Source: Candidatus Enterousia sp. (lineage in GTDB: Bacteria > Pseudomonadota > Alphaproteobacteria > Rs-D84). From it: a DNA stretch of 64,000 bases. Each line of letters begins with the position of its first letter. Positions within the stretch are counted from its first letter, which is position 1. Shown here one piece after another: positions 4,773-53,527 of this stretch. Made by a program: the position numbers and the translations under genes. The notes beneath the pieces are model-generated. The model saw nothing but the letters and a program-made list of their open reading frames with translations, made no database searches and was not told the origin of the DNA. The stretch spans positions 14,248 through 78,247 of the forward strand of contig JAZNVZ010000003.1 in the NCBI GenBank assembly GCA_045593065.1. The letters are read 5' to 3'.

Positions 4773-5816
4773 TTAATCTTCGGTTTTTTCAGGAATTCGA
4801 CCGTCTGTGGATAATAATACTGCAATCCAACGTGTCGAATCAAATTGTGCGGTAATAATAAATATTGCAGCCAAAATCGGCACACTGAAAAACATACCTG
4901 CGACACCCCATAACAATCCCCAAAATACCAAATTGATTAATATTGCTAATGTGGACAGGTTTAATGTTTTCCCCATTAATTTTGGATCAATAATATTTCC
5001 AAATATGGTTTCCAGAACAATCAAACCGCCAGCGGTTAATAATGGCAAATGTAATGAATCCCCAGAAATCATTGCGTATAAAATTGGCAGTGCGCACGCA
5101 ACAATAGAACCAATCGTTGGAATGTAATTCATAATGAATATCAAAAACGCCCAAACGCCAGCGAATTCTAATCCAATGGCACGCAACCAGATGTATGCAC
5201 ATATACCCGTGGCGCCAGCAATGGCTGTTTTTACAAACAAATATTTTTTCATGTTTTTATCAAAACTTTCAACAATATAACCAAATTTTTTTGTTTTGGA
5301 TTTTGATTCAAACAAGTTGTTCATTTTATGATGAAATGTACTTTGTTCTACAAACAAGAATAAAATGTAAATCAAAATCATGCCCAATGATGTCGCAATA
5401 TTTGCCGCAGATGCACCAACTGTTTTTACAATGTCAGTTAGTTTTGGGAACATGTTTATATCAAATGTTAATCCTAATTTATTGAACATATATGTACTGA
5501 ATGTAATCAGTTTTTCTTGAATTTCTGGGATACGCGCAACCAGTTCCGAAAACATAGGGTTTATTTGTGTCGCGAATGCGTACAATAAATAGCATAAACT
5601 GGTGGCAGACAGTAATATTGACAATATATTAAAAAATTCTGGCCAAAACACAGGACATTTCTTTTTGCAATAATTAAACGGCAAAATTTTGCGAAAATAT
5701 GCCGCGATTGCGTTTATTAAATACCATAAAAATATTGCAACCAATAATGGAATTAATATGGTGCGACCAAACCATAACAATATAACCAGACCGGTAAAAA
5801 TAATTATTCCATTCAT
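4773..5816 (-). CDS. AI-2E family (PerM/YhhT-like) transporter
   Basis: 347 aa polytopic membrane protein with a typical AI-2E fold pattern. Confidence 0.8.
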   Translation of the reverse strand: MNGIIIFTGLVILLWFGRTILIPLLVAIFLWYLINAIAAYFRKILPFNYCKKKCPVFWPEFFNILSILLSATSLCYLLYAFATQINPMFSELVARIPEIQEKLITFSTYMFNKLGLTFDINMFPKLTDIVKTVGASAANIATSLGMILIYILFLFVEQSTFHHKMNNLFESKSKTKKFGYIVESFDKNMKKYLFVKTAIAGATGICAYIWLRAIGLEFAGVWAFLIFIMNYIPTIGSIVACALPILYAMISGDSLHLPLLTAGGLIVLETIFGNIIDPKLMGKTLNLSTLAILINLVFWGLLWGVAGMFFSVPILAAIFIITAQFDSTRWIAVLLSTDGRIPEKTED

Positions 5817-5862
5817 GTTTGTTCCTCCCTTTTTTTATTGAATTTAATGCGTATAGCGCATT

Positions 5863-6537
5863 TTATGATTTTATGTTTCCGTGTTCCAATTCTGTTATTT
5901 CTGTTGGTGAAATCAAATCGGTAAATTCTGGTTGATGACTGATAAATAAAAATGTCGTGTTTGGCATTTTGTTTATTGTTTCGGCAATCTGTTTTTGTGT
6001 TTGTGTGTCCGCCCCAGAATCAGGTTCGTCCAGAATTGCGAGTTTTGGTTTGGTTAATAATAATCGCAACAGCATTAATCGTTTGCGTTCCCCGCCAGAA
6101 AAACCAACATTAACACTGCGCCCCATCCAATCTTTTGGAATGTTTAATTGTTCGCGTGCAGATTCCAGCATTTCCATAAATTCAGCCATTGATAAATCGC
6201 GGCCTGTTTCAAAAAGCGTGTGTGCAATCATACTGTGTTTCAAAAAATTTACAACGGTTAATCCCGGTATTTCAGGAACATTTTGCGCACCCAGAAAAAT
6301 TCCGCGTAATGCGCGTTCTGTGGTGGTGGCGTTTGTAATGTCTGTACCATCGAAAATTATTTGGCCGTTTGTTATGCGGTATTCTGGATTGCCAGCAATA
6401 GTTTGTACCAATGTCGATTTTCCAGACCCGTTGTGTCCCGCTAATAAATGGCGTGCGCCAGTTTTGACAGATATGTTTATATCGTTTAATAAACATTTGT
6501 CCCCGAATGAAACAGATAAATTTTTTATTTCCAGCAT
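5863..6537 (-). CDS. sufC: Fe-S cluster assembly ATPase SufC
   Basis: The 224 aa ABC ATPase has Walker A GHNGSGKST, the signature LSGGERKR and Walker B ILDEPDSG. Confidence 0.9.
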   Translation of the reverse strand: MLEIKNLSVSFGDKCLLNDINISVKTGARHLLAGHNGSGKSTLVQTIAGNPEYRITNGQIIFDGTDITNATTTERALRGIFLGAQNVPEIPGLTVVNFLKHSMIAHTLFETGRDLSMAEFMEMLESAREQLNIPKDWMGRSVNVGFSGGERKRLMLLRLLLTKPKLAILDEPDSGADTQTQKQIAETINKMPNTTFLFISHQPEFTDLISPTEITELEHGNIKS

Positions 6538-6542
6538 TTGTA

Positions 6543-7868
6543 TTATTCCTTGCCTAGTGCCATTTGTATTAATTGTTTTGATTCTACCAAGAATTCCATT
6601 GGTAATCTAGATATAATTGGGTTGGCCGTTGCGCCGATTATCAAAGCAATCGCTTGGTCTGTGGTGATGCCAGATTGTTCCAGAAAAAACAGTGTGGCGA
6701 CATCAATAGCGCCTGTGGTGGCCTCATGCGATTGGATGTTGGTATTGTTGGTATGAATAATTGTTGGGATTGTATTCGCAGTAGCATTTTCACCCACAAT
6801 GGTTGTGTCGCATTTTGATGCGTTTGCACAATGTTCGCCAGTAAAATTAACCAAACTGCGGAATGTTTGTTTAGAATCATCTAATGCAACCCCATATGAC
6901 ACAATGTTCGATACAGAATTATTTCCAATATGAATCATTTTCGTTCCTGTGTCAGATTGTTGGGCACCACGCGTAATTGTCAGTGAATAAAAATCGCTAT
7001 GCGCATTGTTTCCGGACAAAATTGTTGATGGGTATTTCCATGTCATGGCCGACCCAATTTCAATTTGCGTCCAATCAAGTGTCGCATTATTTTCGCATTT
7101 GCCGCGTTTCGTTACAAAATTCAAAATACCACCGACAGGTTTGTTTCCTATATGTTTCCCAGCATACCAATTTTGTACAGTTGAATATTTTACATACGCA
7201 TTATCCAGCACAACAATTTCAACAACACCGCTGTGTAATTGATGATTGGGACGGCGTGGGGCACTGCATCCTTCCATATAACTTAAATTTGCACCAGTAT
7301 CTGCGATAATCAGTGTGCGTTCAAATTGACCAATTTTTGCGGTTTCGATTCTAAAATAACTGGCCAAATCAATAGGGCATTTTGTGTGTGGCGGAACATA
7401 TACAAATGTGCCGTCTGAAAATACCGCAGCGTTTAACGCTGCAAAAAAATTGTCAGTAGCAGGAACAACACTCCCCAGATATTTTTTTACCAGGTCTGGA
7501 TATTGAATTACAGCATCACTGAATGGTAAAAATATAATCCCCAGTTTTGCTAGTTCTGCGGTGTATGATGTGTGCACAGATTGACTGTCGATGACGGTAT
7601 CGGTTGCCATACCCAGTAATGCCTGTTGTTCGCTTTCAGGGATGCCCATTTTTTTATATGTGTCAGCCAAATCTGAATTATCAATCGGTTTTGCCCCAGC
7701 AAAATATTCCAATGAATCGTAATCGATTGGGTCAAAATCTATTTCTGCCCAATGAGGTTCTTGCATTTTTTGCCACGCGTCAAACGCCGCCAATCGCCAA
7801 TCTAGCAACCATTGAGGTTCATTGCGTTTTGTTGATATTTCTCGAATAAGATTTGCATCCAATTTCAA
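6543..7868 (-). CDS. sufB: Fe-S cluster assembly protein SufB
   Basis: 441 aa SufB/SufD-family protein located upstream of sufC. Its C-terminal region (DTGTKMIHIGNNS...HEATT...LPMEF) matches SufB. Confidence 0.82.
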   Translation of the reverse strand: MKLDANLIREISTKRNEPQWLLDWRLAAFDAWQKMQEPHWAEIDFDPIDYDSLEYFAGAKPIDNSDLADTYKKMGIPESEQQALLGMATDTVIDSQSVHTSYTAELAKLGIIFLPFSDAVIQYPDLVKKYLGSVVPATDNFFAALNAAVFSDGTFVYVPPHTKCPIDLASYFRIETAKIGQFERTLIIADTGANLSYMEGCSAPRRPNHQLHSGVVEIVVLDNAYVKYSTVQNWYAGKHIGNKPVGGILNFVTKRGKCENNATLDWTQIEIGSAMTWKYPSTILSGNNAHSDFYSLTITRGAQQSDTGTKMIHIGNNSVSNIVSYGVALDDSKQTFRSLVNFTGEHCANASKCDTTIVGENATANTIPTIIHTNNTNIQSHEATTGAIDVATLFFLEQSGITTDQAIALIIGATANPIISRLPMEFLVESKQLIQMALGKE

Positions 7869-7870
7869 AT

Positions 7871-8413
7871 TTATTCACCCGTTTCTGCCAGTTGTTGCGC
7901 CTGACTGAAAAATGTTAGAGATTGTCCCAGCAGGCCATCTGTAAATGTTGATGATAATATGCCATCAGGTTCAGTCGTTGTCAAATATTGTAATAATCTG
8001 TTTGCCCCGGTTATATAATTATTAATGTTATGCGCAATACTGGTATCCAGTTTTATGCAGCGGCGCAATTTTTCCAACGCAAATGGATTTTTTGAATATT
8101 CGTCCATAATCCCGCCCAGTGCGCGCCATAACGGATGTTCGTTTGTATTGCGCGGCATAACATCGATTGCCGCCATCACAGGAATTAGATTTTGCAACAA
8201 ATCTTGATATACAATTTCGGCGTTTTCGGCAACCGCGTTTGTTGCGTTTTTACTTTTTAACAAAGATTGCATTTTTGTAATCAGGTTATATTGATATGTT
8301 AATGTTTTTGATATGTTCATGATTTGTGCATTTATGCCGCGTATGCTGATAAATACAGCAATAACAGCAATGAAAACAAATGCCAATAAAGATAAAATAA
8401 TAATGTCTTGCAT
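7871..8413 (-). CDS. hypothetical membrane protein with an N-terminal TM helix (180 aa)
   Basis: Its stop overlaps the sufB start. There is a single N-terminal hydrophobic helix. I considered LemA but could not support it. Confidence 0.5.
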   Translation of the reverse strand: MQDIIILSLLAFVFIAVIAVFISIRGINAQIMNISKTLTYQYNLITKMQSLLKSKNATNAVAENAEIVYQDLLQNLIPVMAAIDVMPRNTNEHPLWRALGGIMDEYSKNPFALEKLRRCIKLDTSIAHNINNYITGANRLLQYLTTTEPDGILSSTFTDGLLGQSLTFFSQAQQLAETGE

Positions 8414-8511: not shown

Positions 8512-8540
8512 TTGCACAGATTCGGTCAAATTGCTATAAT
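8512..8540 (+). promoter_or_regulatory. near-consensus sigma70 promoter (TTGCAC-17 nt-TATAAT) upstream of the TcpQ-like/secretin pair
   Basis: The sequence is cttgcacagattcggtcaaattgctataat, lying 34 nt upstream of the RBS aaagg and the ATG at 8574. Confidence 0.5.
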
Positions 8541-8573
8541 AAGAATATCTAGATGGAAAGAAAGGACATTTAA

Positions 8574-9485
8574 ATGTTTCGTAAATTTTTGATTTTTGCA
8601 ATGTTTGCAACGGCTGCGGGGTATTGTTTTGCTGAACAATCTGCCCCCCAGGTTACCACAGCCGAGGTGTTTGCCGACCAATACAAATCTGGGACAGAGG
8701 TTGTTGACGAAACCATAACAACAACCGAAACGACAGAGGTTGCCCAATATAACACAGACGAAAATGTGCCGGCATGGCCGATTGCGGGCTCTGATGCAGA
8801 TGTTGTCGCAAAATGTGATGATGCCCAGAAAAAAACGGATAGTATTCGTATTGTGTCTAAGATTGGCGATGATATGATTGTTGAAAATGGGTTTGAATTT
8901 ACAGGAACAGGATGGACCGGTGGGGCAAACATGTTGCATGGTAATCGTATCCCAATGGGTTTTGATGACGAATGCGAAAATGGCGCAGAAATGCCTTTGT
9001 TAAATCGCGAAATGTTAGAAGACGATGGCGGAAATGTCTTGGCGATGTCGCGCAGTGGTCGCAAACATTGTGCCAAGCGCAATAAACAATACGGATTTAT
9101 AGCCCAAGACGAAGGTATGGAGGGCATGGATGGCGCAGATACAGCCACATGGGAAATGGAATTTAACAAAGATATGTCCACAGAAAACACTGCTACTAAA
9201 AATGCAGATGCGCCACAGCCCAAGGCAGACGAAGTGCGTTCTTGGGTGGTGGCCAGTGGTCAAACCCTGCGCGAGGTTTTGCAAAATTGGTGCGACAAAG
9301 AAGGTTGGGATCTGGTTTGGGCGACTTCGCGTGAATATCCAATCGAGGCCAGTGCCGTATTCAAGGGTCGTTTTACAGATGTCGCATCTGCGTTGGTGCG
9401 TAATTTTGGACGCGCAACGCCGGTGCCGTATGCCAAATTTTACAAGGGAAATTTGGTGTTGGTAATTTCTACTAATGAAGAATAA
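8574..9485 (+). CDS. exported TcpQ/PilL-like protein (C-terminal TcpQ-type domain)
   Basis: Signal peptide MFRKFLIFAMFATAAGYCFA. The C-terminus SWVVASGQTLREVLQNWCDKEGWDLVWATSREYPIEASAVFKGRFTDVASALV matches the W..G.TL...L..W....GW.lvW pattern I recall for the TcpQ / PilL C-terminal domain. It lies directly upstream of a secretin gene. Confidence 0.6.
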   Translation: MFRKFLIFAMFATAAGYCFAEQSAPQVTTAEVFADQYKSGTEVVDETITTTETTEVAQYNTDENVPAWPIAGSDADVVAKCDDAQKKTDSIRIVSKIGDDMIVENGFEFTGTGWTGGANMLHGNRIPMGFDDECENGAEMPLLNREMLEDDGGNVLAMSRSGRKHCAKRNKQYGFIAQDEGMEGMDGADTATWEMEFNKDMSTENTATKNADAPQPKADEVRSWVVASGQTLREVLQNWCDKEGWDLVWATSREYPIEASAVFKGRFTDVASALVRNFGRATPVPYAKFYKGNLVLVISTNEE

Positions 9486-9517
9486 ATTTTTGTATCCGCA
9501 GCGAGGAGAATAAAAAT

Positions 9518-11146
9518 ATGAAAACGTTATTAAAGAAATTGGTTTTGTTTGCGTGTCTGGGGGCGTTGTTCGTTGGTTGTTCACGCGAACAGTCGGTCAA
9601 GGTTGCATCAACTGTGGATCAAGATTTTATCAATGCGTACGATGCGTTTGAAATGGCAAAAAATCCACGTGCCAAGGTCGCCAGTGGTGATACGGTATCT
9701 GTATCCGAAGGTGTATGGTTGGGCAATAAATCAATATCATTGGAACATCGTAATAATTTGCCTGCGCAATTTGAAACAGATACAGGGGTTACAATTTTGT
9801 TGGATGAACCTGTTACATTGCAAGTGTTGGCAAATAACATTAATACTGTAACAGGAATACCTGTTAAAATTGATAAGCAAATTAATGGCGAAAAATTAAA
9901 AAAGACCGTAAATGTTGCATATACTGGTAAATTGTCTGGGTTGTTGTCTCAGGTTGCCACAGATTTAGATTTGTTGTGGTATTATGATAAAAATTCAATC
10001 GTGTTTTATGAAACAGAAACAAGAACATTTACATTGTATGCGCTGGGGACGGATATTTCTTATCAAACCGCGGTCCAAGCCGATAATTCTGGTCAGGTGA
10101 TTTTGGAATCAACCATGAAAGAATGGGACGAGGTTGAAAAAGCATTAACCGCGATCGTGGGCAAGGCCGAAAATAGCGAGTTTACAGTTTCGCGCAGTTT
10201 GGGTACAATCACTGCCACAGCACCACCATCTGTGTTGGCGCGTATCGGCGAATATGTTGAAAAACAAAACAAAAGATTATCTCAGTTAGTAACGATTGAT
10301 GTCAAGGTTTTGCAGGTGTCAATTTCTAACGATTCCGCGTTTGGGTTGAATTTGGCGGCGGCAATTAATTCTACATCAGGGTTGAATATTGTTGCGAATC
10401 CTAAAAATAATTTGGGTGTGGCTGGGGCCAGTTCTATGAATATTGCCGTATTGTCGAATGCGTTGTCTGCACAGACAGGCGCAACCCACATGGAAAATGG
10501 CAGTGCGGTTGCCGGGGCATATACCAATGACCAAATTATGAATGGGTCTTTGGCACGTGGTGCGGGCAGTGCCGGATTGATTGAGGCATTGGCAAAGCAG
10601 GGCAAGGTGTCTTTGGTAACTAATGTTGGTGTAACAACGCGTAATAACCGTGTCGCACCCGTCAGCAACATGACATCAACAGGATATATCAAACGTTTTG
10701 AATCCAGAAACTTTACAACAGTTGAATCAAGTACTGTGGACCAGGCGGATTTGCAGACAGGTTTTTCAATGCAACTGTTGCCAAATGTTTTAGAAAACGG
10801 TAAAATATTGTTGTTGTTCCGTATGTCTGTGCGCGAATTGATTAAAATGTCAACCCAAACCATTGGCGAGGTTACATTGCAATTACCAGAGGTTGAAGAA
10901 CGCAGTTTTATGCAAGAAGTAATTATGGAATCTGGTCAAATGTTGGTTGTGTCTGGGTTCGAAAAACAAAAGAATAATGATACGCGTTATGGGTTGGGTG
11001 ATCCGGACTTTATGGCGTTGTCTGGGTCGCGTTCAACGGCATCTGGACGTGATGTGTTGGTGGTTATATTGACCCCCCAGGTGTTAATCAGTCCGTTGGA
11101 TTCAGAACGCAGTATCCAACAAAATTGGGGTGCGCCATTGAATTAA
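9518..11146 (+). CDS. secretin-family outer-membrane lipoprotein (PilN/TcpC-like type IVb pilus secretin)
   Basis: Lipoprotein signal with lipobox LFVGC. The C-terminal secretin-like region ends ...GRDVLVVILTPQVL. The 542 aa length fits PilN-type secretins. Confidence 0.68.
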   Translation: MKTLLKKLVLFACLGALFVGCSREQSVKVASTVDQDFINAYDAFEMAKNPRAKVASGDTVSVSEGVWLGNKSISLEHRNNLPAQFETDTGVTILLDEPVTLQVLANNINTVTGIPVKIDKQINGEKLKKTVNVAYTGKLSGLLSQVATDLDLLWYYDKNSIVFYETETRTFTLYALGTDISYQTAVQADNSGQVILESTMKEWDEVEKALTAIVGKAENSEFTVSRSLGTITATAPPSVLARIGEYVEKQNKRLSQLVTIDVKVLQVSISNDSAFGLNLAAAINSTSGLNIVANPKNNLGVAGASSMNIAVLSNALSAQTGATHMENGSAVAGAYTNDQIMNGSLARGAGSAGLIEALAKQGKVSLVTNVGVTTRNNRVAPVSNMTSTGYIKRFESRNFTTVESSTVDQADLQTGFSMQLLPNVLENGKILLLFRMSVRELIKMSTQTIGEVTLQLPEVEERSFMQEVIMESGQMLVVSGFEKQKNNDTRYGLGDPDFMALSGSRSTASGRDVLVVILTPQVLISPLDSERSIQQNWGAPLN

Positions 11147-11172
11147 GGTTTTTCTAAAGAAAGGAGAAAGAA

Positions 11173-11200
11173 TCAGGCGGTGAAAACCGCCTGATTTAAT
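11173..11200 (+). terminator. intrinsic terminator after the secretin gene
   Basis: Hairpin tcaggcggtgaaaaccgcctga followed by a T-run. Confidence 0.6.
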
Positions 11201-11210
11201 TTTGTTATTA

Positions 11211-11245
11211 AAAATACCCCGCAAAATGCGGGGTGAAATTTTTTA
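11211..11245 (-). terminator. intrinsic terminator downstream of rpsT
   Basis: Hairpin ccccgcaaaatgcgggg with flanking A/T runs on both sides. Confidence 0.55.
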
Positions 11246-11259
11246 TGCGACTGTCGCAA

Positions 11260-13203: not shown

Positions 13204-14241
13204 ATGTTGGTAAATATGAATGATTTATTTGATAAATTATTGGTTTTGCGTTCGCCTGGCATTGGACCGGTGGCTTATGAAAAATTAATAAAACAATTTG
13301 GGTCGCCTGCGGCGGCGGCAGATACTTTGCGCGATAATCGCGAATTGGTTGACGCGGTGCATCGTGAAATCGATTTGGCAATGCGTTTGGGTGCGTGTTT
13401 TGTATGTGATACAGATGCAGAATACCCCGTGGAATTAAAAAACATCAAAGGCCATCCACCTGTTATTTGTGCACGTGGAAATTTGGACACATTAAAAAAA
13501 CCGATTGTCGGTATCGTTGGTACGCGTTATGCAACCGCCACAGGAATACGATTTATCAGTGATTTAGCAGAATGTTTCGCAAATCATAATGTTGCAGTGG
13601 CATCTGGTATGGCGATTGGTACAGATACTGCGGCGCACAGTGGTGCATTGCGTGCGGCGGGGAATGCCCAAACGATTGCGGTGTTGGGCGGTGGTGTGGA
13701 TTATGTTTGGCCGATTGAAAACGAATCGTTATATAATGAAATTATTGAACGCGGTGTTGTAATTAGTGAAATGCCCATGGGGTTTGTACCACGTGCCACA
13801 AATTTTGTTCAACGAAACAGATGGATTGCGGGCATTTCAAGTAAAATAATCTTGGGCGAGGCCGATATTAAATCTGGCAGTATGCGAACAGCCCAGTTCG
13901 CAATGGATTTTGGACGTGAATTGTGGGCGGTGCCATCGCATCCCGCAGATACGCGTTCGGCAGGACCTAACTCATTAATTGCGCGCGGCGTGGCAAAATT
14001 GTGTTCGGGGGCAGGGGATTTTTTCCATGATGTCGCCACAAGTCCTGAAAACAGGCAAAATATTAATTTGAATGCGAATCTTGAAAACGATTTGTTAAAC
14101 GCATTGGGCAGTGTGCCTGTTCCTGAATCTGTATTGGCAGATGTTGTCAAAAAAACTATTACGGAAATCAAGCGTGATTTGGTTGTTTTGGAATTGCGCG
14201 GGTTGGTGCAAAAACAAAACGGTGGATATATTAAATTGTGA
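13204..14241 (+). CDS. dprA: DNA processing protein DprA (Smf)
   Basis: The Rossmann-like core (IVGTRYATATG...AIGTDTAAH...VLGGGVD) is present, with a C-terminal winged-helix-like tail. Confidence 0.85.
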   Translation: MLVNMNDLFDKLLVLRSPGIGPVAYEKLIKQFGSPAAAADTLRDNRELVDAVHREIDLAMRLGACFVCDTDAEYPVELKNIKGHPPVICARGNLDTLKKPIVGIVGTRYATATGIRFISDLAECFANHNVAVASGMAIGTDTAAHSGALRAAGNAQTIAVLGGGVDYVWPIENESLYNEIIERGVVISEMPMGFVPRATNFVQRNRWIAGISSKIILGEADIKSGSMRTAQFAMDFGRELWAVPSHPADTRSAGPNSLIARGVAKLCSGAGDFFHDVATSPENRQNINLNANLENDLLNALGSVPVPESVLADVVKKTITEIKRDLVVLELRGLVQKQNGGYIKL

Positions 14242-17445: not shown

Positions 17446-19418
17446 ACAAATAAATCTTTTACAAATTGGGCGTGTTCGGTGATGAATTTAAAACGGAACT
17501 CTGGCTTTTTGCCCATTAATTCGGTTACGATTGTTCGTGTTTTTTCAGTGTCTTCGGCACCATCGTCTGTGCGTGGTGGCAATTCAATACGAATTAAACG
17601 GCGTGTTTTTGGCGACATGGTGGTTTCTTTTAATTGATTCGGCATCATTTCGCCCAAACCTTTGAATCGGGATATTTCCACCTTTTTGTTTTTATATTTG
17701 CCGTTCTTTAATTCTTCTAGTTCTTCATCCGTATCGACATAGAACGATTCGGTGCCACATGTAAATTTATACAATGGTGGGCAAGACAAATATAAATGTC
17801 CACCGTAAATTAATTGCGGCATATATTGATAGAAAAATGCCATCAACAAGGATGCGATATGACTGCCGTCTACATCGGCATCGGTCATGACGATAATTTT
17901 TTCATAACGCAATTTGTCCGGATTCCAATCTTTGACCGTACCTGCGCCAATGATATCAATCAAATCATTTAACTCGCGGTTGGCACTGAAACGTTCATCA
18001 GAATTAGACAACACATTTAATACCTTGCCACGCAGAGGCATAATTGCCTGGGTCGCGCGATCGCGTGCCTGTTTAGCGGTACCACCAGCCGATTCGCCTT
18101 CGACAATAAATAATTCGGTTCCGTCCACCCCGTGTTTAGAACAGTCAGCCAATTTTGCCGGCATACGAATCCGCTTGGTTGGGGTTTTGCGTGCGATATC
18201 TTTGACCTGTTTCGTTTTTATACGCGCGTTTGCCAGATTAATAATAAATGATAATAACGCGTTGGATGTTTTTGGGTCAGATGCCAAAAACATTTCCCAC
18301 GGGTCGCGCAAAACATTTTCAACATAACGCGCAATTTCGGGGTTGGATAATTTTTCTTTGGTTTGACCTAAAAATTGTGGTGTTTTATAAAACACAGATA
18401 CAATAGCCGCAACCGAATCGAATACATCATCGCTGACGATTGTGGCGGCCGCCTTGTTGTTTGTTTTTTCGCCGTACGCTTTAATTCCTTTGGTGATTGC
18501 AGATTTAAATCCACTTTCATGGGTGCCACCGTCAATGGTCGCAATCGTGTTGCAATAAGATGCGAAAAATCCGTCATCAGATGCCGCGCCATTTTCGTCT
18601 GTTAAAAATGTTAATGCCCATTCAATGCGACCAGAATCATCAGGAAAATCAAGCGACCCCGAAAACATTTTTGGTAAAATACGCGGTTTGGAATCTGTTT
18701 TTTCAGCCAAGAAATCACTGACCCCGTTGGGATAATAGAAAGTTGTTGTGGCCGGGATATTCATATCATCCGTCAACAATTCTGGATTACAAATCCAATC
18801 AATTTTTATGCCACGTGATAAAAACGATTTCGCGCGTGCCATACGGTAAATCTTGATAGGTTTAAATACCGCGTTCGCGCCAAAAATTTCATCGTCAATC
18901 GTGAAACGAATTTTTGTTCCGTGCGCGCGTGTCGCCGCGCCGCGTTCGATTGATGATGTCGCGCGACCACGCGAAAATGTTTGATGCCATTCGTATCCAT
19001 CGCGTGCAATTACGACATCCATATTTGACGACAATGCGTTCACAACCGCAGACCCCACACCATGCAAACCACCAGATGTTTTATAAACATTATTATTAAA
19101 TTTACCACCAGAATGCAGTGTGGTTAAAATAACCTCTAACGCGGATTTTCCAGGATATTTTGGATGTTCGTCCACCGGGATACCGCGTCCGTCATCAGTA
19201 ATTTCAATGGTTTTAGAATCAATTAAATTCACAGTGATTTTTTTGGCGAAACCGGCCACGGCCTCGTCAATACTGTTGTCCATAATTTCCACGGGCAGGT
19301 GGTGCCAGGCCTTTTCGTCTGTGCCGCCAATATACATGCCAGGTCGCAGGCGAACAGGTTCCAGACCTTCTAATACCTGGATAGCGGACGCGTCATAAGA
19401 TGGTTGTTTTTCTGTCAT
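17442..19418 (-). CDS. parE: DNA topoisomerase IV subunit B (ParE); GyrB not excluded
   Basis: GHKL ATPase and Toprim motifs are present, including the EGDSAGG-like EGESAGGTAKQARDR. The roughly 658 aa length fits ParE better than GyrB. The start MTEKQPSYDASAIQVLEGLEPVR has the RBS aggtg. Confidence 0.8.
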   Translation of the reverse strand: MTEKQPSYDASAIQVLEGLEPVRLRPGMYIGGTDEKAWHHLPVEIMDNSIDEAVAGFAKKITVNLIDSKTIEITDDGRGIPVDEHPKYPGKSALEVILTTLHSGGKFNNNVYKTSGGLHGVGSAVVNALSSNMDVVIARDGYEWHQTFSRGRATSSIERGAATRAHGTKIRFTIDDEIFGANAVFKPIKIYRMARAKSFLSRGIKIDWICNPELLTDDMNIPATTTFYYPNGVSDFLAEKTDSKPRILPKMFSGSLDFPDDSGRIEWALTFLTDENGAASDDGFFASYCNTIATIDGGTHESGFKSAITKGIKAYGEKTNNKAAATIVSDDVFDSVAAIVSVFYKTPQFLGQTKEKLSNPEIARYVENVLRDPWEMFLASDPKTSNALLSFIINLANARIKTKQVKDIARKTPTKRIRMPAKLADCSKHGVDGTELFIVEGESAGGTAKQARDRATQAIMPLRGKVLNVLSNSDERFSANRELNDLIDIIGAGTVKDWNPDKLRYEKIIVMTDADVDGSHIASLLMAFFYQYMPQLIYGGHLYLSCPPLYKFTCGTESFYVDTDEELEELKNGKYKNKKVEISRFKGLGEMMPNQLKETTMSPKTRRLIRIELPPRTDDGAEDTEKTRTIVTELMGKKPEFRFKFITEHAQFVKDLFV

Positions 19419-19553
19419 AGCACCTATATTATTAGAACATTTTGATTTTTTTCGCAAGTTAGATTTTTTATTGTTTTTTTGGCGGTCTCACTTGAATTTT
19501 TTTATAAATGGACTATATCTGGGGGGACATCAAGAAAATACAAGGTCGTATTC

Positions 19554-20678
19554 ATGAATAAAAATCCGTATGAAGTTTTGGGTGTGGCGCGCGATGCCAC
19601 GGATGCTGATATTAAAAAAGCGTATCATAAACTGGTTATGAAATATCACCCAGATAAAAATCCTGGGGATAAATCCGCAGAAGAAAAATTCAAAGAGGTT
19701 AATAACGCATTCGATATATTAAAAGACCCACAAAAACGCGCCGCGTATGACCGATTTGGTGATGCAGCATTTGCTGGTGGAAATGGTGCGTCTGGGGGTG
19801 CAGGAAATCCATTTGGTGCGGGTTTTGGCGGTTTTGCTGGTGGCGCAGGGATGGATGATATATTGCGCGAGGCAATGCGTGGTTTTGGTTTTGACGGTTT
19901 TGGCGGATTTGGTGGCGCGCGCGGTGCCGCACAACAGCGCGGGCGTGATTTGTTGGATAATGTGACAATATCGTTGCGGGATGCGTATTTTGGCACAACA
20001 CATACTGTTAAATTTTCTGGTAATGTCGTATGTGATAAATGTGGTGGTAATGGTACAGATGACGGTAAACCGGCACCGATTTGTCCGCGATGTGGCGGCA
20101 GTGGTATGGTTCAAACCCGCCAAGGATTTTTTGCTGTTGAACATCCGTGTCCAGAATGCAATGGGTTGGGGCGCAAGATTTCCAAAAAATGTTCTAAATG
20201 TGATGGTACGGGCACTGTGCATAAACAACGCACATTAGAAGTAAAAATCCCAGCAGGGGTCGCCGATGGTACGCGTTTGCGTCTGGGCGGTCAGGGCGAG
20301 GCCGGTCAAAACGGTGCGGATGCAGGTGATTTTTATATTGATATTCATGTTGCAGATGATGATAAATTTGAACGCGTTGGCAATGATTTGATTTTAAAGG
20401 CCGATGTGCCGTTCACGACACTTGCGTTGGGGGGTGAAATTGAAATCGAAACCTTGGACGATAAAAAATTGTCTGTTAAAATCCCGGCGGGTACACAAAT
20501 TGGTTCGCGTCTGCGCGTGCGTGGGCATGGTATGCCAAATCCGCATCGCAGTGGTTCGTTTGGTGATTTGTTCGTTGAAATTACCATGACCGTGCCAAAT
20601 AAATTAACCGAAAAACAAAAGAAGGCATTGGCGGAATTTGCTGGCGCAAAACCTGGTAAAAAATCCGGGTGGTTTTAG
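19554..20678 (+). CDS. dnaJ: molecular chaperone DnaJ
   Basis: J-domain with HPD (KYHPDKNP), a Gly-rich linker, and four CxxCxGxG zinc-finger repeats. Confidence 0.9.
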   Translation: MNKNPYEVLGVARDATDADIKKAYHKLVMKYHPDKNPGDKSAEEKFKEVNNAFDILKDPQKRAAYDRFGDAAFAGGNGASGGAGNPFGAGFGGFAGGAGMDDILREAMRGFGFDGFGGFGGARGAAQQRGRDLLDNVTISLRDAYFGTTHTVKFSGNVVCDKCGGNGTDDGKPAPICPRCGGSGMVQTRQGFFAVEHPCPECNGLGRKISKKCSKCDGTGTVHKQRTLEVKIPAGVADGTRLRLGGQGEAGQNGADAGDFYIDIHVADDDKFERVGNDLILKADVPFTTLALGGEIEIETLDDKKLSVKIPAGTQIGSRLRVRGHGMPNPHRSGSFGDLFVEITMTVPNKLTEKQKKALAEFAGAKPGKKSGWF

Positions 20679-22847: not shown

Positions 22848-23285
22848 ATGAGACAAGAATCAGGTCGTTCTATGGTTGAAATGTTGGGCGTGTTGGCAAT
22901 TATGGGTATTATTACCGTTGGCGCAATCAGTATGATTTCGTATGCTATGCGTATGCAAAAACACAGCAGGGTCAGCGATGATGTGTATCAAATCGTTCTG
23001 GGGGTGCGGCAAATGTTGGGCGAACATGACGATTTTACCAGAATTGATAATTCTACAATCTTTACTGCGTTGGCAATGTCAAACAGAAATCCATACGGTG
23101 GAAAATATACAGTTGGTGTAAACCCTGTGAATTCGCGTCAATTCGTTGTAAAAATTGACGGGTTGACAGACAGTGATTGCAAGGCATTGGTAACCAAGGC
23201 GTGGACAGATTCTGTTGATGGTGCCACGGGAAATTGTGTTAGTATGGGCAAAGATAATGTTGTATCTATTGTTTATGGGGAATAA
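22848..23285 (+). CDS. type IV pilin (class III signal G|RSMVE, C-terminal disulfide loop)
   Basis: MRQESG|RSMVEMLGVLAIMGIITVGAISM has Gly at -1 and Glu at +5 followed by a hydrophobic helix. The 145 aa protein has two C-terminal Cys residues (DCKALV...GNC). RBS gaggtga. Confidence 0.68.
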   Translation: MRQESGRSMVEMLGVLAIMGIITVGAISMISYAMRMQKHSRVSDDVYQIVLGVRQMLGEHDDFTRIDNSTIFTALAMSNRNPYGGKYTVGVNPVNSRQFVVKIDGLTDSDCKALVTKAWTDSVDGATGNCVSMGKDNVVSIVYGE

Positions 23286-31081: not shown

Positions 31082-31441
31082 ATGAAAAATTATGCAAAGG
31101 TTTTGGTTTTTGCCGCGATTGTGGCGTTGATTGTTGTTCCGGCGATGGCGGCGGGCGGGGATGCTTGCGCTGGTAAAGAAGGTGTGTGCGGTTTGGTGTG
31201 CAAAATGCAGGACGTATTTAAAACATTGCGTATTTTGGCATTTGTTGGTGCTGGGTTTTATATGGCCGGTTGGGCATGGACCTATATTTCCAAGGGCGAG
31301 GCCAAAATGGATGATATCAAAGGTAAAGGTATCGGTTTGTTGGTAGGGTTTACATTGTTGTTTGCAATCGGTATTGTTATATCGTTCTTGATGAATACGG
31401 CCGGTTCGGATGGGACCAAGTGTGTGGCCGAGGGCTGGTAA
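31082..31441 (+). CDS. small exported membrane protein with TrbC/VirB2-pilin-like architecture
   Basis: Signal peptide ending AMAAGG, a Cys-containing N-segment, then two hydrophobic helices (ILAFVGAGFYMAGWAWTYI and IGLLVGFTLLFAIGIVISFLM) separated by a short basic loop. Overall 119 aa. Confidence 0.5.
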   Translation: MKNYAKVLVFAAIVALIVVPAMAAGGDACAGKEGVCGLVCKMQDVFKTLRILAFVGAGFYMAGWAWTYISKGEAKMDDIKGKGIGLLVGFTLLFAIGIVISFLMNTAGSDGTKCVAEGW

Positions 31442-41828: not shown

Positions 41829-41970
41829 TTTTTTTCAAAAAACTCTTTTTTTTTATGTCTAAAAAGTGTATAATATATGCAACATAAATAGGGGGGATTT
41901 TGTCGCATTATCAGGAATTTTTCCCCAAAAACAAACAAACGAACGAACGACATATAAAGGAAAGTGTGAT

Positions 41971-43353
41971 ATGAAAATCAAAAATTTTGCATTTTTTGGT
42001 GTTATGGCATCAATTTTGGGCGTCTGTGCCGCAAATGCAGATACGCCAACGGCGAAGCGAATCGCATCCACGCATTATGTGGACGAGACGGTTGCCCCAA
42101 AACAAGATAAATTAGACACCACCGCAGGTACAGGAAATGTTACATTTACTGGCGAAGGTAATGCAATCACAGGTGTTAGTGCATCTGGTGATGGTACGGT
42201 TCAATTTACCAAGGGTGCAACATTTTTGACCGCCACAGATATTACTGGTAAACAAGATAAAATTTCGAATGCGACAAATGGTAATATCACAACCACAGAT
42301 GCATCCGGTCAAACACAAGATTCTGGAAAAACATTTACAACAACAGTTGACAGCAATAGTACGAATGCTCAAATCCCAACAGCGGCTGCGGTTCAAAGTG
42401 CGATTACCACAGCCACGGCGGATGTTTCTGGCAAGGTCGATATTGCCCAGGGTGTTGGACATGAAGAGCATATTGTAGTTACTGATATTAATGGCAATGT
42501 TACGACTGCGCCATCAATTAAGTATACCCAAGTTGATGGATTGGTGGGCGCTTTCCAAGCATATAATGATTCAGCCGTTGATTCCGGAACATATGAAGTT
42601 ATTTCTGCTGGAAACTATGTTGGTAAGAATTTGATAAAGTTGGACGGAGAGAAACAAAATAAAATCGATTCCCGTGTGCCTGCGGTAGGACAAGGAGAGC
42701 CAAATTATCTGGCGATTACACCAAATAGTATCACGGTTGGTAAAAACCTGGCGTTGTTGGACCGCGCAATTCAAGAAAATCGTGGCAAACTTAACAGCAA
42801 ACAAGACGCATCAGATTCAAATGTGCCTGTGGCAGGACAAGGTCAACAGTATGCCGTAATTTCCGCTGGTAATAATGTTGGTACAAACTTGGTTGCATTG
42901 GATACGGCAATCACAAGCAATCTTGCCAAAATTCAAGAAAATCGTGACAAACTTGACAGCAAACAAAACGTAGCAGATTCAAATGTGCCTGTGGCGGGAC
43001 AAGGACAATCATATAACGCGATTACCAGTGGTAATTCTGTTGGTACAAACTTGGTCGCATTGGATACGGCGATTGGTACATTGTCTGGGACGGCGGGCGA
43101 TGCAGTGCAGGGTGTTAATGCAACCGTATCTGGCACTGGCGAGGCCATTACCGCCGTGGCAGAAAATGCAACAACACATAATTTAGATTTGACCAAATCT
43201 CAATTATCATACGCCGGTGCAATGAACAATGCGTTGCCAGAAATCAACGGTACGGCAAACTGGACAACAGCAAATTGTACTGATGATGACCCATGTGTGT
43301 TGACCATGAAATCAAATGGTGTGTTTGTGTGGACACATATGGTTACACAATAA
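41971..43353 (+). CDS. exported fibre-repeat protein 1 (phage-tail-fibre-like repeats; paralog family of three)
   Basis: Signal peptide MKIKNFAFFGVMASILGVCAANA and an N-terminal module AKRIASTHYVDETV. There are three 54-aa tandem repeats (NVPVAGQGQ.Y..I..GN.VGTNLVALDTAI). The C-terminal module is NCTDDDPCVLTMKSNGVFVWTHM. Confidence 0.8.
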   Translation: MKIKNFAFFGVMASILGVCAANADTPTAKRIASTHYVDETVAPKQDKLDTTAGTGNVTFTGEGNAITGVSASGDGTVQFTKGATFLTATDITGKQDKISNATNGNITTTDASGQTQDSGKTFTTTVDSNSTNAQIPTAAAVQSAITTATADVSGKVDIAQGVGHEEHIVVTDINGNVTTAPSIKYTQVDGLVGAFQAYNDSAVDSGTYEVISAGNYVGKNLIKLDGEKQNKIDSRVPAVGQGEPNYLAITPNSITVGKNLALLDRAIQENRGKLNSKQDASDSNVPVAGQGQQYAVISAGNNVGTNLVALDTAITSNLAKIQENRDKLDSKQNVADSNVPVAGQGQSYNAITSGNSVGTNLVALDTAIGTLSGTAGDAVQGVNATVSGTGEAITAVAENATTHNLDLTKSQLSYAGAMNNALPEINGTANWTTANCTDDDPCVLTMKSNGVFVWTHMVTQ

Positions 43354-43489: not shown

Positions 43490-44653
43490 TTATTGCACAT
43501 TGCCCAGGTTCATGTTTGTCCATGTGTAATTTGTACCATCAAATGTCAATGTACATGGATTAGACCCAGTGCACGATGTGCCCGCAGCATATGCACCACC
43601 ATTAAAGTTTGCCAATTCATATGTCATACCGTCTTTGTATGTAATTCTGCCACGGCCAACACTGATTTGTCCGTTTGTTTGGTCAACTTCGACAACAGGT
43701 TGATTGGTTGCGGTATCTGCAACATTTGTAATTGTGTCTTGTTTGCCCGCAATATCCGCAGCAGTCAAAAATGTTGCGCCTTTTTCAATGGTTACAACAC
43801 CGTTCGCCGCAGTTACCGCGGTTACCGCGTTCCCAGAACCGTTTTGCTGCGATACAACAACATTAGTATTGTTTAATGTATCTTGTTTGCCAGAAATATC
43901 AGGAATTGCAGGCGTGTTTGTCAAATCTGCATAATCACCAGATGTCGCAACTGCGGCCAATGTTGGTTTGTTTGTCAAATCATTATAACTGCCAGATGTC
44001 GCAACCGTTGCCAATGTTGGTTTGTTCAAGATTTGTGCCGCCCCCGTTGTTGCGTTCCAGTCAGATTGAACATTTCCAGATGCCGCCGCGTTTTGAATTT
44101 CGTTCATAACCGTAGAACCATTAGGTACAGTGCCGATTGTGTTGTTAATACCGCTGATTGCACCGGCAACGGCCTGGCCAGATGGTGCGATTGTTGTATG
44201 TGTGGAATCAATCGTGTTTTCAACAAAATCCGCGTTTGTTGGAATTGTTGGTTTGTTTGTCAAATCATTATAACTGCCAGATGTGGCAACCGTTGCCAAT
44301 GTTGGTTTGTTCAAGATTTGTGCGGTACCGCCGGTTGCGTTCCAATCGGCATTAACCTGGGCAGGAACATCGGCAGATGTGATATATCCCGCATCATTTG
44401 CTAATTCGCTGACATTATCGCCTGGTTGCAATGCGGTCGCGCCTTCTGCCGCGCCACCCGCAACTTCATCAATCGCGGATTGGATTGTTGTCGCGGTTAA
44501 TCCGGATGTTTGGTTGTCGTAATCAGCCGCCGCAGCATTTTGTTTAACATAATTTACAGTTGCAACCTGGGTTACAGGGTTAGTGGCGTATGCATTCGCA
44601 GCGGCAAATATAGATGCCATTACGCCAAAAAATGCAAAGTTTTTAATATTCAT
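43490..44653 (-). CDS. exported fibre-repeat protein 2 (contains SGSYNDLTNKPT phage-fibre-type repeats)
   Basis: Start MNIKNFAFFGVMASIFAAANAYA with RBS aaggaa, then VATVNYVKQN. The unit NKPTLA(T/A)VATSG(S/D)Y(N/A)DLTN occurs three times. The C-terminal module is CTGSNPCTLTFDGTNYTWTNM. Confidence 0.8.
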   Translation of the reverse strand: MNIKNFAFFGVMASIFAAANAYATNPVTQVATVNYVKQNAAAADYDNQTSGLTATTIQSAIDEVAGGAAEGATALQPGDNVSELANDAGYITSADVPAQVNADWNATGGTAQILNKPTLATVATSGSYNDLTNKPTIPTNADFVENTIDSTHTTIAPSGQAVAGAISGINNTIGTVPNGSTVMNEIQNAAASGNVQSDWNATTGAAQILNKPTLATVATSGSYNDLTNKPTLAAVATSGDYADLTNTPAIPDISGKQDTLNNTNVVVSQQNGSGNAVTAVTAANGVVTIEKGATFLTAADIAGKQDTITNVADTATNQPVVEVDQTNGQISVGRGRITYKDGMTYELANFNGGAYAAGTSCTGSNPCTLTFDGTNYTWTNMNLGNVQ

Positions 44654-44846
44654 GTTTTGTTCCTTGGTTTTTTGGTTGTTTATTTGTTGGTGAGCAGAAT
44701 TTTTTATATTCTCCCCCCTGATAATTACTTTATATTTTATCATAAAATTGTATTAAAACAAAACTGTTTTTACAAATAATTAATATCAAATTATTGCCTT
44801 TTGATATTTGCGTGGTATAGTTGCAACAACAAAAAAGGTTGATGAT

Positions 44847-49432: not shown

Positions 49433-49819
49433 ATGTCTATTACAAAAAAATTAAAAATTAAAAAATCACAATGGCGCGAATTTATTAGATGCGCAAAAAT
49501 AATGCGCGATGCAAGTGCAAATGTGGCACGCGCCGAAGATAAAATACACCTGAAAAAAACTTATAGTTATGATATCGAACAGGTCGGTTGGGACAATGGT
49601 TCTTGCTTGGTTACGCATGTGTATCCTGGCAAGGATGAATTCGGTGCTCAGGTGAATAAAAAATATCGTGATGTTTGTGAACATTTTGAATGTTGCAAAT
49701 GTTCATATTGTGTGCATCACCGTGATTGGCACAATTATAGGGACGCCAAGAAATCTTATGAATTGGCAAAAATTGCGTTCAGGATAGCCAGACAAAAATT
49801 TTTTGCAAAAGTAAAATAA
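49433..49819 (+). CDS. small Cys-rich hypothetical protein, paralog 1 of 3 (integrase-linked)
   Basis: RBS aaggag. The C-terminal cluster is CEHFECCKCSYCVHH followed by a basic helix YELAKIAFRIARQKFFAKVK. Confidence 0.6.
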   Translation: MSITKKLKIKKSQWREFIRCAKIMRDASANVARAEDKIHLKKTYSYDIEQVGWDNGSCLVTHVYPGKDEFGAQVNKKYRDVCEHFECCKCSYCVHHRDWHNYRDAKKSYELAKIAFRIARQKFFAKVK

Positions 49820-49840
49820 AAAAAACCAAAGGAGGCGCAC

Positions 49841-50236
49841 ATGTGTATAAAAAAAATTTGTCTTAATAATATAAAAAAATTGCGTATGCATCGCGCAGAC
49901 CAAGATGCGTATGATGAAAAATATAATGCGTACACAAAAACTTTGGATGCATTGAAAAAGGTAAAGACCCAGCACGAAGCCGCCCAGGCCGATATTACAA
50001 AAACTGTGTATCTGGATGCGGGTGATGCTGCGCCAAAGCAAGAAATTTGCCGTATGGTCGTGTACGAAGATATGCAACCTAAATATATTCAAACATGTTC
50101 GTATTTCAAAGATTGTGATAACGCCGATTGTCCGCATTACAAAAAGTTAGCGCGTTATATGCATGTGGATGAACAACTGGTCGTGGCAAAAATCGCATTC
50201 GAACGCGCCGAATCTGTGTGGAGTAAACAACGATAA
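49841..50236 (+). CDS. small Cys-rich hypothetical protein, paralog 2 of 3
   Basis: RBS aaggagg. Cluster CSYFKDCDNADCPHY followed by VVAKIAFERAESVWSKQR. Confidence 0.6.
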   Translation: MCIKKICLNNIKKLRMHRADQDAYDEKYNAYTKTLDALKKVKTQHEAAQADITKTVYLDAGDAAPKQEICRMVVYEDMQPKYIQTCSYFKDCDNADCPHYKKLARYMHVDEQLVVAKIAFERAESVWSKQR

Positions 50237-50247
50237 AAAAGGTCGTA

Positions 50248-50646: not shown

Positions 50647-50667
50647 AAAAGCAAAAGGAGAAAAATT

Positions 50668-53450: not shown

Positions 53451-53527
<77 letters not shown>

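Follow-up and report, generated by a model that had tools for sequence, protein, structure and literature searches.

A pair of adjacent genes in the gut alphaproteobacterium Candidatus Enterousia (order Rs-D84; genome of less than 1 Mb) probably encodes the outer-membrane conduit of a type IVb pilus, with a filament of a TcpA-like pilin passing through the channel, the other parts dispersed and attachment as its role. The device is of a known kind; what is unusual is its genomic layout. Candidatus Enterousia and other Rs-D84 bacteria are widespread in human, ruminant and termite guts, and have no known means of acquiring nutrients. The genome survey of the lineage describes genomes below 1 Mb, no respiration and no standard transporters, and proposes that its members depend on a partner (PMC12306168).

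The two-gene unit and its proteins

The unit lies in a 64-kb stretch of DNA, which was analysed as a whole and which we call the window. It consists of a 303-aa partner gene followed by a 542-aa secretin gene, both of them present in the ORF listing of the window at the coordinates and lengths that an earlier sequence-only reading had given. That reading had also placed a pilin gene elsewhere in the window, and this is included among the features below.

8512..8540, + strand: sigma-70-type promoter; -35 TTGCAC at 8512-8517, 17-nt spacer ending in TGc (extended -10), -10 TATAAT at 8535-8540
8574..9485, + strand: TcpQ/BfpG/PilL-class secretin partner, 303 aa (Pfam TcpQ; sequence and fold match to BfpG)
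9518..11146, + strand: type IVb-class lipoprotein secretin, 542 aa (Pfam Secretin, TIGR02520, BfpB match, lipobox Cys21)
11170-11197 and 11215-11235, no strand assigned: two intrinsic-terminator-like hairpins between the secretin gene and the convergent rpsT; bidirectional use is possible
22848..23285, + strand: TcpA-like type IV pilin, 145 aa, the probable filament subunit for the secretin, a functional link that we infer (motif, fold, profile)

The unit had been credited with its own promoter and terminator. The promoter (TTGCAC-17-TATAAT) matches exactly, with an extended -10 TG in addition, and two hairpins stand 3' of the secretin gene. The hexamers and their spacing are identical in 83 of 84 Enterousia loci, as is the extended -10 TG (83/84), and 54 of 84 relatives have a T-tailed hairpin no more than 150 nt beyond the secretin stop. 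Ribosome-binding sites precede both genes. The gap between the genes is 32 bp here (median 33 bp across 83 loci), and the two are presumably co-transcribed. To the left lie sufC/sufB, as previously described, together with a 180-aa ORF; the right flank, also described before, consists of rpsT and plsY. Further downstream lie dprA (2 kb from the pair) and the pilin gene (11.7 kb). A location at oriC was ruled out: the GC-skew step at about 8.2 kb merely tracks the direction of coding, and the 25 DnaA boxes counted are no enrichment over the 24 expected.

In relatives, the slot 3' of the secretin measures between 79 bp and 3.6 kb. In about half of the species it is filled by unrelated ORFs, Cys-rich or lectin-like, that carry signal peptides; many species, and this window, have nothing there. 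Variable secreted proteins of the same type are also encoded elsewhere in the window.

The 542-aa protein had been read as a PilN-type lipoprotein secretin, and the 303-aa protein as carrying a TcpQ/PilL-type C-terminus. Profile searches place both above their Pfam cutoffs. For the secretin, PF00263 (Secretin) matches residues 357-523 with E=1.6e-12 and 47.8 bits (cutoff 27.5), and the best NCBIfam model is TIGR02520 (PilN family, type IVB; E=6.9e-70), though with a score of 236 bits, below the equivalog cutoff of 287.65. The next family, MshL, scores 92 bits, and the secretin of an out-group that lies inside a full operon (L091) also falls below the TIGR02520 cutoff, at 245 bits. The match to BfpB (PDB 9u5s_A; E=2.9e-37) runs in three collinear segments spanning residues 32-523. 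In particular, residues 32-117 are collinear with BfpB 13-97 (the LG region), a segment that is weak when taken alone (i-Evalue 0.024); residues 41-60 are conserved at 98%, and the motif D.VS.S..WLG also occurs in out-groups. Identity with plasmid PilN genes is about 26% over 96% of the length.

The layout of the secretin is a lipobox Cys21, an LG-collinear N-terminus, an N0/N3 region and the secretin domain, followed by a 19-residue tail in place of an S domain. It is a predicted lipoprotein by virtue of the Cys21 lipobox. This cysteine is invariant among 24 relatives, down to 30% identity, and no fewer than 84 of 88 Enterousia copies have a canonical lipobox (LAGC/VAGC/LTGC-type).

The partner is modular. 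A Sec signal peptide (residues 1-20, without a canonical lipobox in Enterousia) opens it, an N0-like TcpQ domain (residues 221-300) forms its C-terminus, and between them a middle domain (residues about 61-160) is flanked by two hypervariable linkers, of which the first is acidic. The TcpQ domain matches PF10671 (TcpQ) over residues 222-299 with E=1.5e-17 and 63.8 bits (cutoff 27), and is 92-95% conserved in a per-domain profile. The middle domain is moderately conserved and shares motifs with the PilL-like protein of out-group L091; its AF2 model, with a pLDDT below 50, is too uncertain for a fold assignment. Over residues 222-300 the pLDDT is 78-90, and this part of the model matches BfpG (PDB 9u5s_R) in Foldseek with E=1.4e-7, TM 0.86, rmsd 1.5 A and 34% identity, ahead of VirB7 and secretin N0 domains. 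The sequence match to the same chain has E=2.9e-14. A search for records encoding an identical TcpQ-like protein (P0121) or the ORF at 402-722 found no match.

That both proteins match a single solved complex, BfpB-BfpG of EPEC (PDB 9u5s; PMC12531336), counts in favour of a pilus conduit. In both, the partner gene precedes the secretin gene. The Enterousia secretin, a predicted lipoprotein, lacks an S domain like the lipoprotein BfpB and aligns with it over its full length, with a candidate LG region at the N-terminus, and BfpG has the N0-like fold of the partner's C-terminus. On the other hand, identity between BfpB and the Enterousia secretin is only about 25-27%, and BfpG has 114-134 aa against the 303 aa of the partner, which has in addition a conserved middle domain and two hypervariable linkers. 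The Enterousia pair is chromosomal and, unlike in EPEC bfp, no other bfp genes follow it; the comparison here is one of genes and predicted structure. In the length of the partner and its C-terminal TcpQ domain, the pair resembles PilL of the IncI1 plasmid R64 (pilL-pilN of the pilL-V cluster), and the best curated model for the secretin is likewise that of the PilN family, at a sub-equivalog score. Unlike the Enterousia partner with its Sec-type signal peptide, the PilL-like protein of out-group L101 is a lipoprotein.

Motor genes, pilin and PilO2 in Rs-D84

The sequence-only reading had asked whether the pair sits inside a full type IVb cluster in relatives. In the nearest out-groups, which are uncultured, it does: pilL, pilN, pilO, pilP, ATPase and platform genes form a single operon in the R64 order. 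The TcpQ-domain gene is upstream of the secretin in 52 of 54 out-group loci and, among the 43 loci with at least 7 kb of downstream sequence, the secretin is followed by PilO in 42, the ATPase in 42 and the platform in 40. The Enterousia pair descends from such operons or has a common origin with them. Within Rs-D84, however, the pair is never continued by PilO, PilP, ATPase or platform (0 of 89 records). The one out-group locus without a downstream ATPase (L099) was considered as an intermediate towards Rs-D84 and set aside, as it belongs to an unrelated lineage of 57% GC.

The motor is likewise missing from the surroundings of the pair. As had been stated earlier, there are no pilus ATPase, platform or peptidase genes beside it; none occur among the roughly 44 window ORFs scanned by profile, and profile HMMs built for out-group PilO, PilP, ATPase and platform find no match in the whole 64-kb window. 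More broadly, no assembly ATPase, platform or prepilin peptidase is present in the available Rs-D84 sequence (the 64-kb window and some 20 kb of the corresponding region in 88 relatives), a search that covered about 7% of the genome. This result counts against a pilus conduit. So does the genome survey, which gives type IV pili for another lineage only (PMC12306168); the literature on Enterousia and Rs-D84 is silent on pili for this clade.

Other parts of a type IVb pilus are retained elsewhere. A strict prepilin pattern (GFTLIE-like) finds nothing in the window, while the looser G-x4-E followed by a hydrophobic stretch finds exactly one gene, at 22848. Its G6 (-1), E11 (+5), C111 and C130 are invariant across 45 homologs, and it is conserved across the order. 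The AF2 model (pLDDT 79) has a helix at residues 10-57 and then a four-stranded sheet, and its only significant PDB fold matches are to TcpA (8uhf_I, E=1e-4; 3hrv_B, E=0.012). The family profile matches Vibrio cholerae TcpA with E=2.3e-8 over residues 9-117, with G-1 and E+5 in register and a shared DGL..CK.L.T motif. The partner, too, belongs to a Pfam family named after this system (TcpQ). The curated models are less favourable: the N-methyl model TIGR02532 scores 9.2 bits against a cutoff of 16.3, and all others are sub-cutoff (ComGE E=0.016, PpdD E=0.096). Source pipelines name the orthologs 'type II secretion system protein / pseudopilin'. TcpA has 199 aa in its mature form plus a leader, against 145 aa for the Enterousia pilin. 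The leader of type IVb pilins is typically some 15-30 residues long. In this genome it is 6 residues when the longest ORF is taken, with Arg at +1, both atypical for the class; some orthologs could start 14-20 codons earlier. Divergent homologs of the pilin keep the same uvrC-pilin-rluD context, which revealed no motor genes. A second candidate, the ORF at 31082-31441, fits a VirB2-type pilin in topology, has no profile support and was set aside.

One inner-membrane part is also at hand. A single Enterousia locus (L045, contig JAZRIB010000007.1) carries a gene whose best match is 'type 4b pilus protein PilO2', a component that ICE/PAPI-1-type type IVb clusters carry. It is partial, running off the end of the sequence, and comes from one genome only; a scan of viral contigs for the Enterousia PilO2 found no match. 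Compared with the R64 and ICE clusters, the Enterousia genes are dispersed rather than gathered in one operon, and the conjugation context is absent. The lone, partial PilO2 gene, the sub-cutoff TIGR02520 score of the secretin and the pilin's sub-threshold score, Arg +1 and short leader all count against a pilus conduit. Nevertheless, the retention of a TcpA-like pilin and of PilO2 speaks for a type IVb pilus system with dispersed genes rather than for a lone channel. The pair is an 'orphan' by position only, and the stand-alone module described in the sequence-only reading is stand-alone in that sense alone.

A different reading of the missing motor is that it was lost, and that secretin and partner were kept as an autonomous gated pore for the import or export of other macromolecules. 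We consider this improbable, and hold to be equally improbable its wider form, in which the whole of Rs-D84 discarded the motor and the pair is an essential gate for exchanging macromolecules with a partner cell. Such a gate could take up DNA, peptides or lipids, or deliver variable Cys-rich proteins, and would amount to a secretin that functions with no filament machine of its own. The stand-alone pore would fit the absence of PilP, ATPase and platform beside the pair (0/89 records, against 42/43 out-group loci with the ATPase), a conservation of the secretin above that usual for a pilus secretin and exceeding that of dnaA and sufB, and a lineage without standard transporters for which no type IV pili are reported (PMC12306168). 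It sits poorly with an order-wide pilin whose invariant G-1 and E+5 matter only for processing and filament assembly, with the PilO2 gene in L045, and with the reach of the motor search, only about 7% of the genome. In addition, secretins are closed gates that are opened by the substrate filament.

Selection on the pair and its neighbours

A genome scan with an 8-sequence alignment found a relative in 409 species genomes; the best 80 of the 409 loci are all from Enterousia, and the more distant contexts come from a metagenome scan. The pair is present and syntenic in all 89 Rs-D84 records, in a fixed position between core genes, and both genes remain uninterrupted in 84 to 88 species. The secretin has a dN/dS of 0.043 and a median identity of 81.7% over 87 loci, and few genes of the region are as constrained (dN/dS of rpsT 0.038, gatA 0.07, sufB 0.087, dnaA 0.15, dprA 0.19).

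The pair is as well conserved in species with an empty post-secretin slot as in those with a filled one, which bears on the idea that the type IVb machinery is mainly a type-II-like exporter of the variable secreted proteins encoded beside it. There are precedents, as TCP exports TcpF and CFA/III exports CofJ. About half of the species have signal-peptide-bearing Cys-rich or lectin-like ORFs in the slot, and in L088 the partner gene is immediately preceded by an ORF for a Cys-rich protein of 1023 aa, which matches TcpF, but weakly and below threshold (E=0.005). Enterousia has no significant TcpF homolog, nor a tcp-like island such as that of V. cholerae. The slot genes are mutually unrelated, the slot is empty here and in many species, and variable secreted proteins are encoded elsewhere in the window too. 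Export as the main function is also improbable; as it would still require the same pilus machinery, it modifies a pilus conduit rather than replaces it.

The presence of dprA and the pilin gene downstream had suggested a pore for a DNA-uptake pilus acting with DprA and the pilin. Scavenging DNA would be useful to a lineage that is unable to make nucleotides (PMC12306168). This proposal found no support and is more doubtful still. Transformation relies on the PilQ/ComP or Com class, whereas the secretin and pilin here belong to the type IVb class (BfpB/TcpA-like). dprA is near-universal and merely syntenic; its constraint is the weakest in the region, and in relative L007 the gene is split. Finally, no ComEC or ComEA family member was matched among the window ORFs scanned.

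The proposal that the pair is a decaying remnant of a type IVb (thin-pilus) cluster from a conjugative plasmid or ICE can draw on its closest annotated relatives (plasmid PilN/PilL and BfpB/BfpG genes) and on the downstream operon genes missing at the Rs-D84 locus, but selection and synteny effectively refute it: it is contradicted by the dN/dS and median identity of the secretin and by a promoter identical in 83 of 84 species, both frames are intact, the position is fixed order-wide with no integrase or transfer genes alongside, and in GC content the pair matches the remainder of the window. It is no decaying remnant.

Proposed role and significance

By analogy with BfpB-BfpG (PMC12531336), the secretin of the proposed pilus would be lipidated at Cys21 and reach the outer membrane without a pilotin, and its N-terminal LG region would descend along the barrel. 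The C-terminal N0-like domain of the partner would then bind this LG region near the N3 ring, and binding would promote multimerization of the secretin into a gated channel; the BfpB channel is a 17-mer. A pilus of the TcpA-like pilin would thread the channel, and the drive would come from inner-membrane parts encoded elsewhere: PilO2 and, presumably, an ATPase and a platform. Going by the biology of the lineage only, the pilus most likely attaches the cell to a partner cell, a host surface or an aggregate. An attachment pilus would explain why the pore is under constraint equal to that of translation genes.

Of a type IVb pilus, Rs-D84 keeps the pore with its partner, a TcpA-like pilin and, among the inner-membrane parts, at least PilO2; the pore is constrained like ribosomal protein genes. 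This points to a pilus as a central organ of a presumed partner-dependent lifestyle, and would offer a handle for finding its attachment target. Elsewhere, type IVb genes nearly always form one operon, and often a mobile element carries it; the lineage would be a clear natural case of such an operon broken up and dispersed.

The pair and its class

The two neighbouring genes encode a divergent new member of the known type IVb secretin-partner class. They lie in the same orientation 32 bp apart, and Shine-Dalgarno sequences precede both.

Features of the pair
8512-8517 (TTGCAC) and 8535-8540 (TATAAT), + strand: promoter with a 17-nt spacer and a TG extended -10
8574-9485, + strand: TcpQ-like partner, 303 aa; Pfam PF10671 (TcpQ) at C-terminal residues 222-299, E=1.5e-17
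9518-11146, + strand: secretin, 542 aa; Pfam PF00263 at residues 357-523, E=1.6e-12
11170-11197 and 11215-11235: two hairpin terminators between the secretin and the convergent rpsT

The sequence-only reading had proposed a TcpQ/PilL-type C-terminal domain, a PilN-type lipoprotein secretin and a dedicated promoter and terminator. The Pfam matches bear out both domains, the promoter was found exactly as described and two hairpins lie 3' of the secretin. Among curated families the secretin matches TIGR02520 best ('PilN family type IVB pilus formation outer membrane protein', E=6.9e-70), with a score of 236 bits that falls below the equivalog cutoff of 287.65 bits. Its Cys21 is invariant among 24 relatives (identity as low as 30%), and at least 84 of the 88 Enterousia copies have a canonical lipobox.

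Both proteins match one solved PDB entry, 9u5s, the secretin complex of the EPEC bundle-forming pilus. Three collinear alignment segments with BfpB span secretin residues 32-523 (E=2.9e-37), and partner residues 220-301 match the BfpG chain (E=2.9e-14). The AF2 model of the partner is confident for residues 222-300 only, and this part superposes on BfpG with a TM score of 0.86 (rmsd 1.5 Å, 34% identity). After BfpG, the next fold matches of this domain are VirB7 and secretin N0 domains, which are likewise given as similar folds for BfpG itself (PMC12531336). BfpB-class proteins are lipoprotein secretins with a partner-binding N-terminal LG domain, and have neither S domain nor pilotin (PMC12531336). 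The secretin described here has only 19 residues beyond its secretin domain, and residues 41-60, inside the LG-aligned part, are 98% conserved. Against annotated plasmid PilN and BfpB-type genes it aligns over 96% of its length at only ~26% identity, and the partner can be aligned with plasmid bfpG/TcpQ-family genes over its last ~110 residues only.

The partner is built of five modules. A conserved N-terminal signal peptide leads into an acidic linker that is hypervariable. Next comes a middle domain of moderate conservation (residues ~61-160), which has invariant Trp and Cys residues, and another hypervariable linker connects it to the TcpQ domain, which is 92-95% conserved. Motifs of the middle domain are found again in the PilL-like protein of L091, an out-group locus with a full operon, so this domain is not peculiar to Enterousia.

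Genomic setting and selection

Homologs come from uncultured gut and rumen MAGs labelled 'Alphaproteobacteria bacterium', and a genome scan assigns them to Candidatus Enterousia; a relative occurs in 409 species-level genomes (the best 80 of the 409 are all at least 80% identical). Enterousia genomes (order Rs-D84) span 0.75-1.0 Mb and lack respiration, the TCA cycle, flagella and standard transporters; dependence on a partner organism has been proposed, and type IV pili were reported for a different lineage only, not Enterousia (PMC12306168). The remainder of the window is housekeeping (gatBA, ruvX, sufCB, rpsT, plsY, dprA, dnaA, dnaJ, uvrC, dnaN, efp, tolB, lepA, fabF and a GyrB/ParE-type topoisomerase subunit gene).

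In 87 syntenic loci from other species the left flank (gatCAB, ruvX, an AI-2E transporter, sufC, sufB and a 180-aa ORF) and the right flank (rpsT, plsY, dprA, dnaA) of the pair are fixed. Of 84 species, 83 share the same promoter hexamers, spacing and TG. The 180-aa ORF (7871-8413, - strand), divergent from the pair and upstream of sufB, has an N-terminal membrane helix and gave no match in a Pfam search; it is order-wide (median identity 67.6%, dN/dS 0.08), occurring also in L088, a more distant Rs-D84 relative.

Median protein identity to the window, and dN/dS against the 11 closest species (dS about 1)
Secretin: 81.7%, 0.043
GatA: 81.3%, 0.07
RpsT: 80.2%, 0.038
SufB: 77.2%, 0.087
PlsY: 70.9%, 0.117
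DnaA: 63.2%, 0.153
TcpQ-like partner: 60.6%, 0.135
DprA: 60.3%, 0.194

A decaying relic is thus excluded: the earlier suggestion of a remnant conjugative or type IVb system does not withstand the secretin's dN/dS, the fixed synteny and the near-invariant promoter.

Elsewhere in the window, three paralogous secreted repeat proteins (41866-43353, +; 43490-44743, -; 46317-47456, +) share the signal peptide MK(I/V)(K/R)NFAFFGVMA and a C-terminus with Cys; none has a Pfam match, and they may serve as variable surface proteins. At 49433-51669, three short paralogous ORFs rich in Cys and His (128-132 aa) precede an ORF resembling tyrosine recombinases (50668-51669; weak XerD match, E=0.0015); this segment may be a small integrated element, and a tRNA-Pro lies at 53451. 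A 119-aa ORF (31082-31441) with a signal peptide and two hydrophobic helices, a VirB2/TrbC-like topology, is kept in relatives (L168:17962-18318); profile searches gave it no support. In some Enterousia genomes a reverse-transcriptase (RVT_1) gene (L168:3577-4608, L169:1113-2144), preceded by a small ORF, lies between dnaA and dnaJ; the window lacks it, and it may represent a retron or an insertion of the group II intron type.

Other type IVb parts and the out-group operon

The pair is an 'orphan' in position only, and two other type IVb parts survive in the lineage.

22848-23285: TcpA-like pilin ORF, 145 aa, N-terminus MRQESG followed by RSMVEMLGVLAIMGIITVGA

Across 45 homologs the pilin never varies at G6, E11 (+5) and two cysteines in the C-terminal part. 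The AF2 model (pLDDT 79, pTM 0.70) places a four-stranded sheet after a helix of 48 residues, and its only significant matches in a PDB fold search are TcpA (8uhf_I, E=1e-4; 3hrv_B, E=0.012). At the sequence level, too, the family profile matches TcpA (E=2.3e-8), and the alignment brings G-1 and E+5 into register. The pilin is an atypical member: none of the curated prepilin models reaches its threshold on this ORF, Arg stands at +1, and the copy in the window has a leader of only six residues. Some of its orthologs are labelled as pseudopilins of type II secretion by source pipelines.

A further type IVb gene is located by the rearranged region after dnaA in the Enterousia locus L045, where a PilO2 ORF (19330-20163) runs open to the end of the available sequence. 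The out-group PilO profile hits it (E=4.8e-38), and it is similar to genes annotated as 'type 4b pilus protein PilO2' (Bosea, E=4e-14, 99% coverage) and, though partial, reaches 24.9 bits on Pfam PAP_PilO. The order after dnaA (L045:15254-20163) is ORFs of 189, 283, 300 and 320 aa, a 124-aa lipoprotein, then pilO2; judged by eye only, the 189-, 300- and 320-aa ORFs are HD-domain-, LpxK- and LpxC-like, respectively.

A metagenome scan with the nearest out-group secretins as queries gave 80 loci. In L088 (secretin 70% identical to that of the window) the pair also stands alone and the same pilin follows uvrC, so this layout is older than the genus. The next relatives (30-40% identity) have a single operon of TcpQ-domain gene, lipoprotein secretin, PilO, coiled-coil PilP-like protein, ATPase and platform, the R64 pilL-N-O-P-Q-R order. 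Their PilO scores 52-79 bits on PAP_PilO. Their ATPase belongs to the GspE/PilB family (TIGR02533, E about 1e-67) and their platform to the GspF family. Where at least 7 kb lies downstream, ATPase and PilO each occur in 42 of 43 out-group loci and the platform in 40 of 43; the TcpQ-domain gene precedes the secretin in 52/54 out-group loci. Out-group protein profiles found no PilP, ATPase or platform in the window and the Rs-D84 loci (~20 kb around the window genes). The organisation is unusual: the pair is separated from the rest of its operon and, throughout an order of gut bacteria with tiny genomes, keeps a fixed place between core genes.

The 'stand-alone' description holds for position only, as the lineage keeps the pilin and a PilO2 gene. 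That the secretin is a lone outer-membrane channel without a motor is quite unlikely, because the pilin keeps its conserved processing and assembly residues and a PilO2 gene is present.

Proposed role

An improbable alternative is secretion of variable neighbouring proteins. It is suggested by the slot 3' of the secretin, elsewhere a variable island (79 bp to 3.6 kb) of unrelated secreted ORFs, but this slot is empty in the window (11147-11259) and in many species. Across Enterousia, the island (L001:11685-13463, L002:12060-13364, L004:11854-13362, L005:11856-13463, L006:10087-12132) encodes Cys-rich proteins, or lectin/tail-fibre-like proteins with a terminal ...GTGTFTAGP motif. L088 has a 1023-aa Cys-rich secreted ORF immediately upstream of the partner gene (5156-8227), whose Pfam TcpF match is weak and below threshold (E=0.005; 16 bits, cutoff 25).

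DNA uptake, raised earlier on account of dprA and the pilin, is very unlikely: the class of secretin and pilin gives no support, and dprA is weakly constrained. This gene (13204-14241) is the least constrained of the region and is split in one relative into two ORFs of 151 and 186 aa (L007:13056-14081), which suggests that it can be lost. A mobile-element relic is effectively refuted.

We favour a pilus; homology, gene organisation, selection and ancestry are established by the data above, whereas its assembly, the passage of a filament and a use in attachment are inferences. By analogy with BfpB-BfpG, the secretin would be lipidated at Cys21 and would need no pilotin to reach the outer membrane. 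After export by Sec, the partner would bind the LG region through its N0-like domain and promote assembly of a gated multimer, through which a filament of the TcpA-like pilin, built by inner-membrane parts encoded elsewhere, would be threaded. In a cell with no evident nutrient transporters that presumably depends on a partner, such a pilus would most plausibly serve for attachment or aggregation, and this role would explain the unusual constraint.
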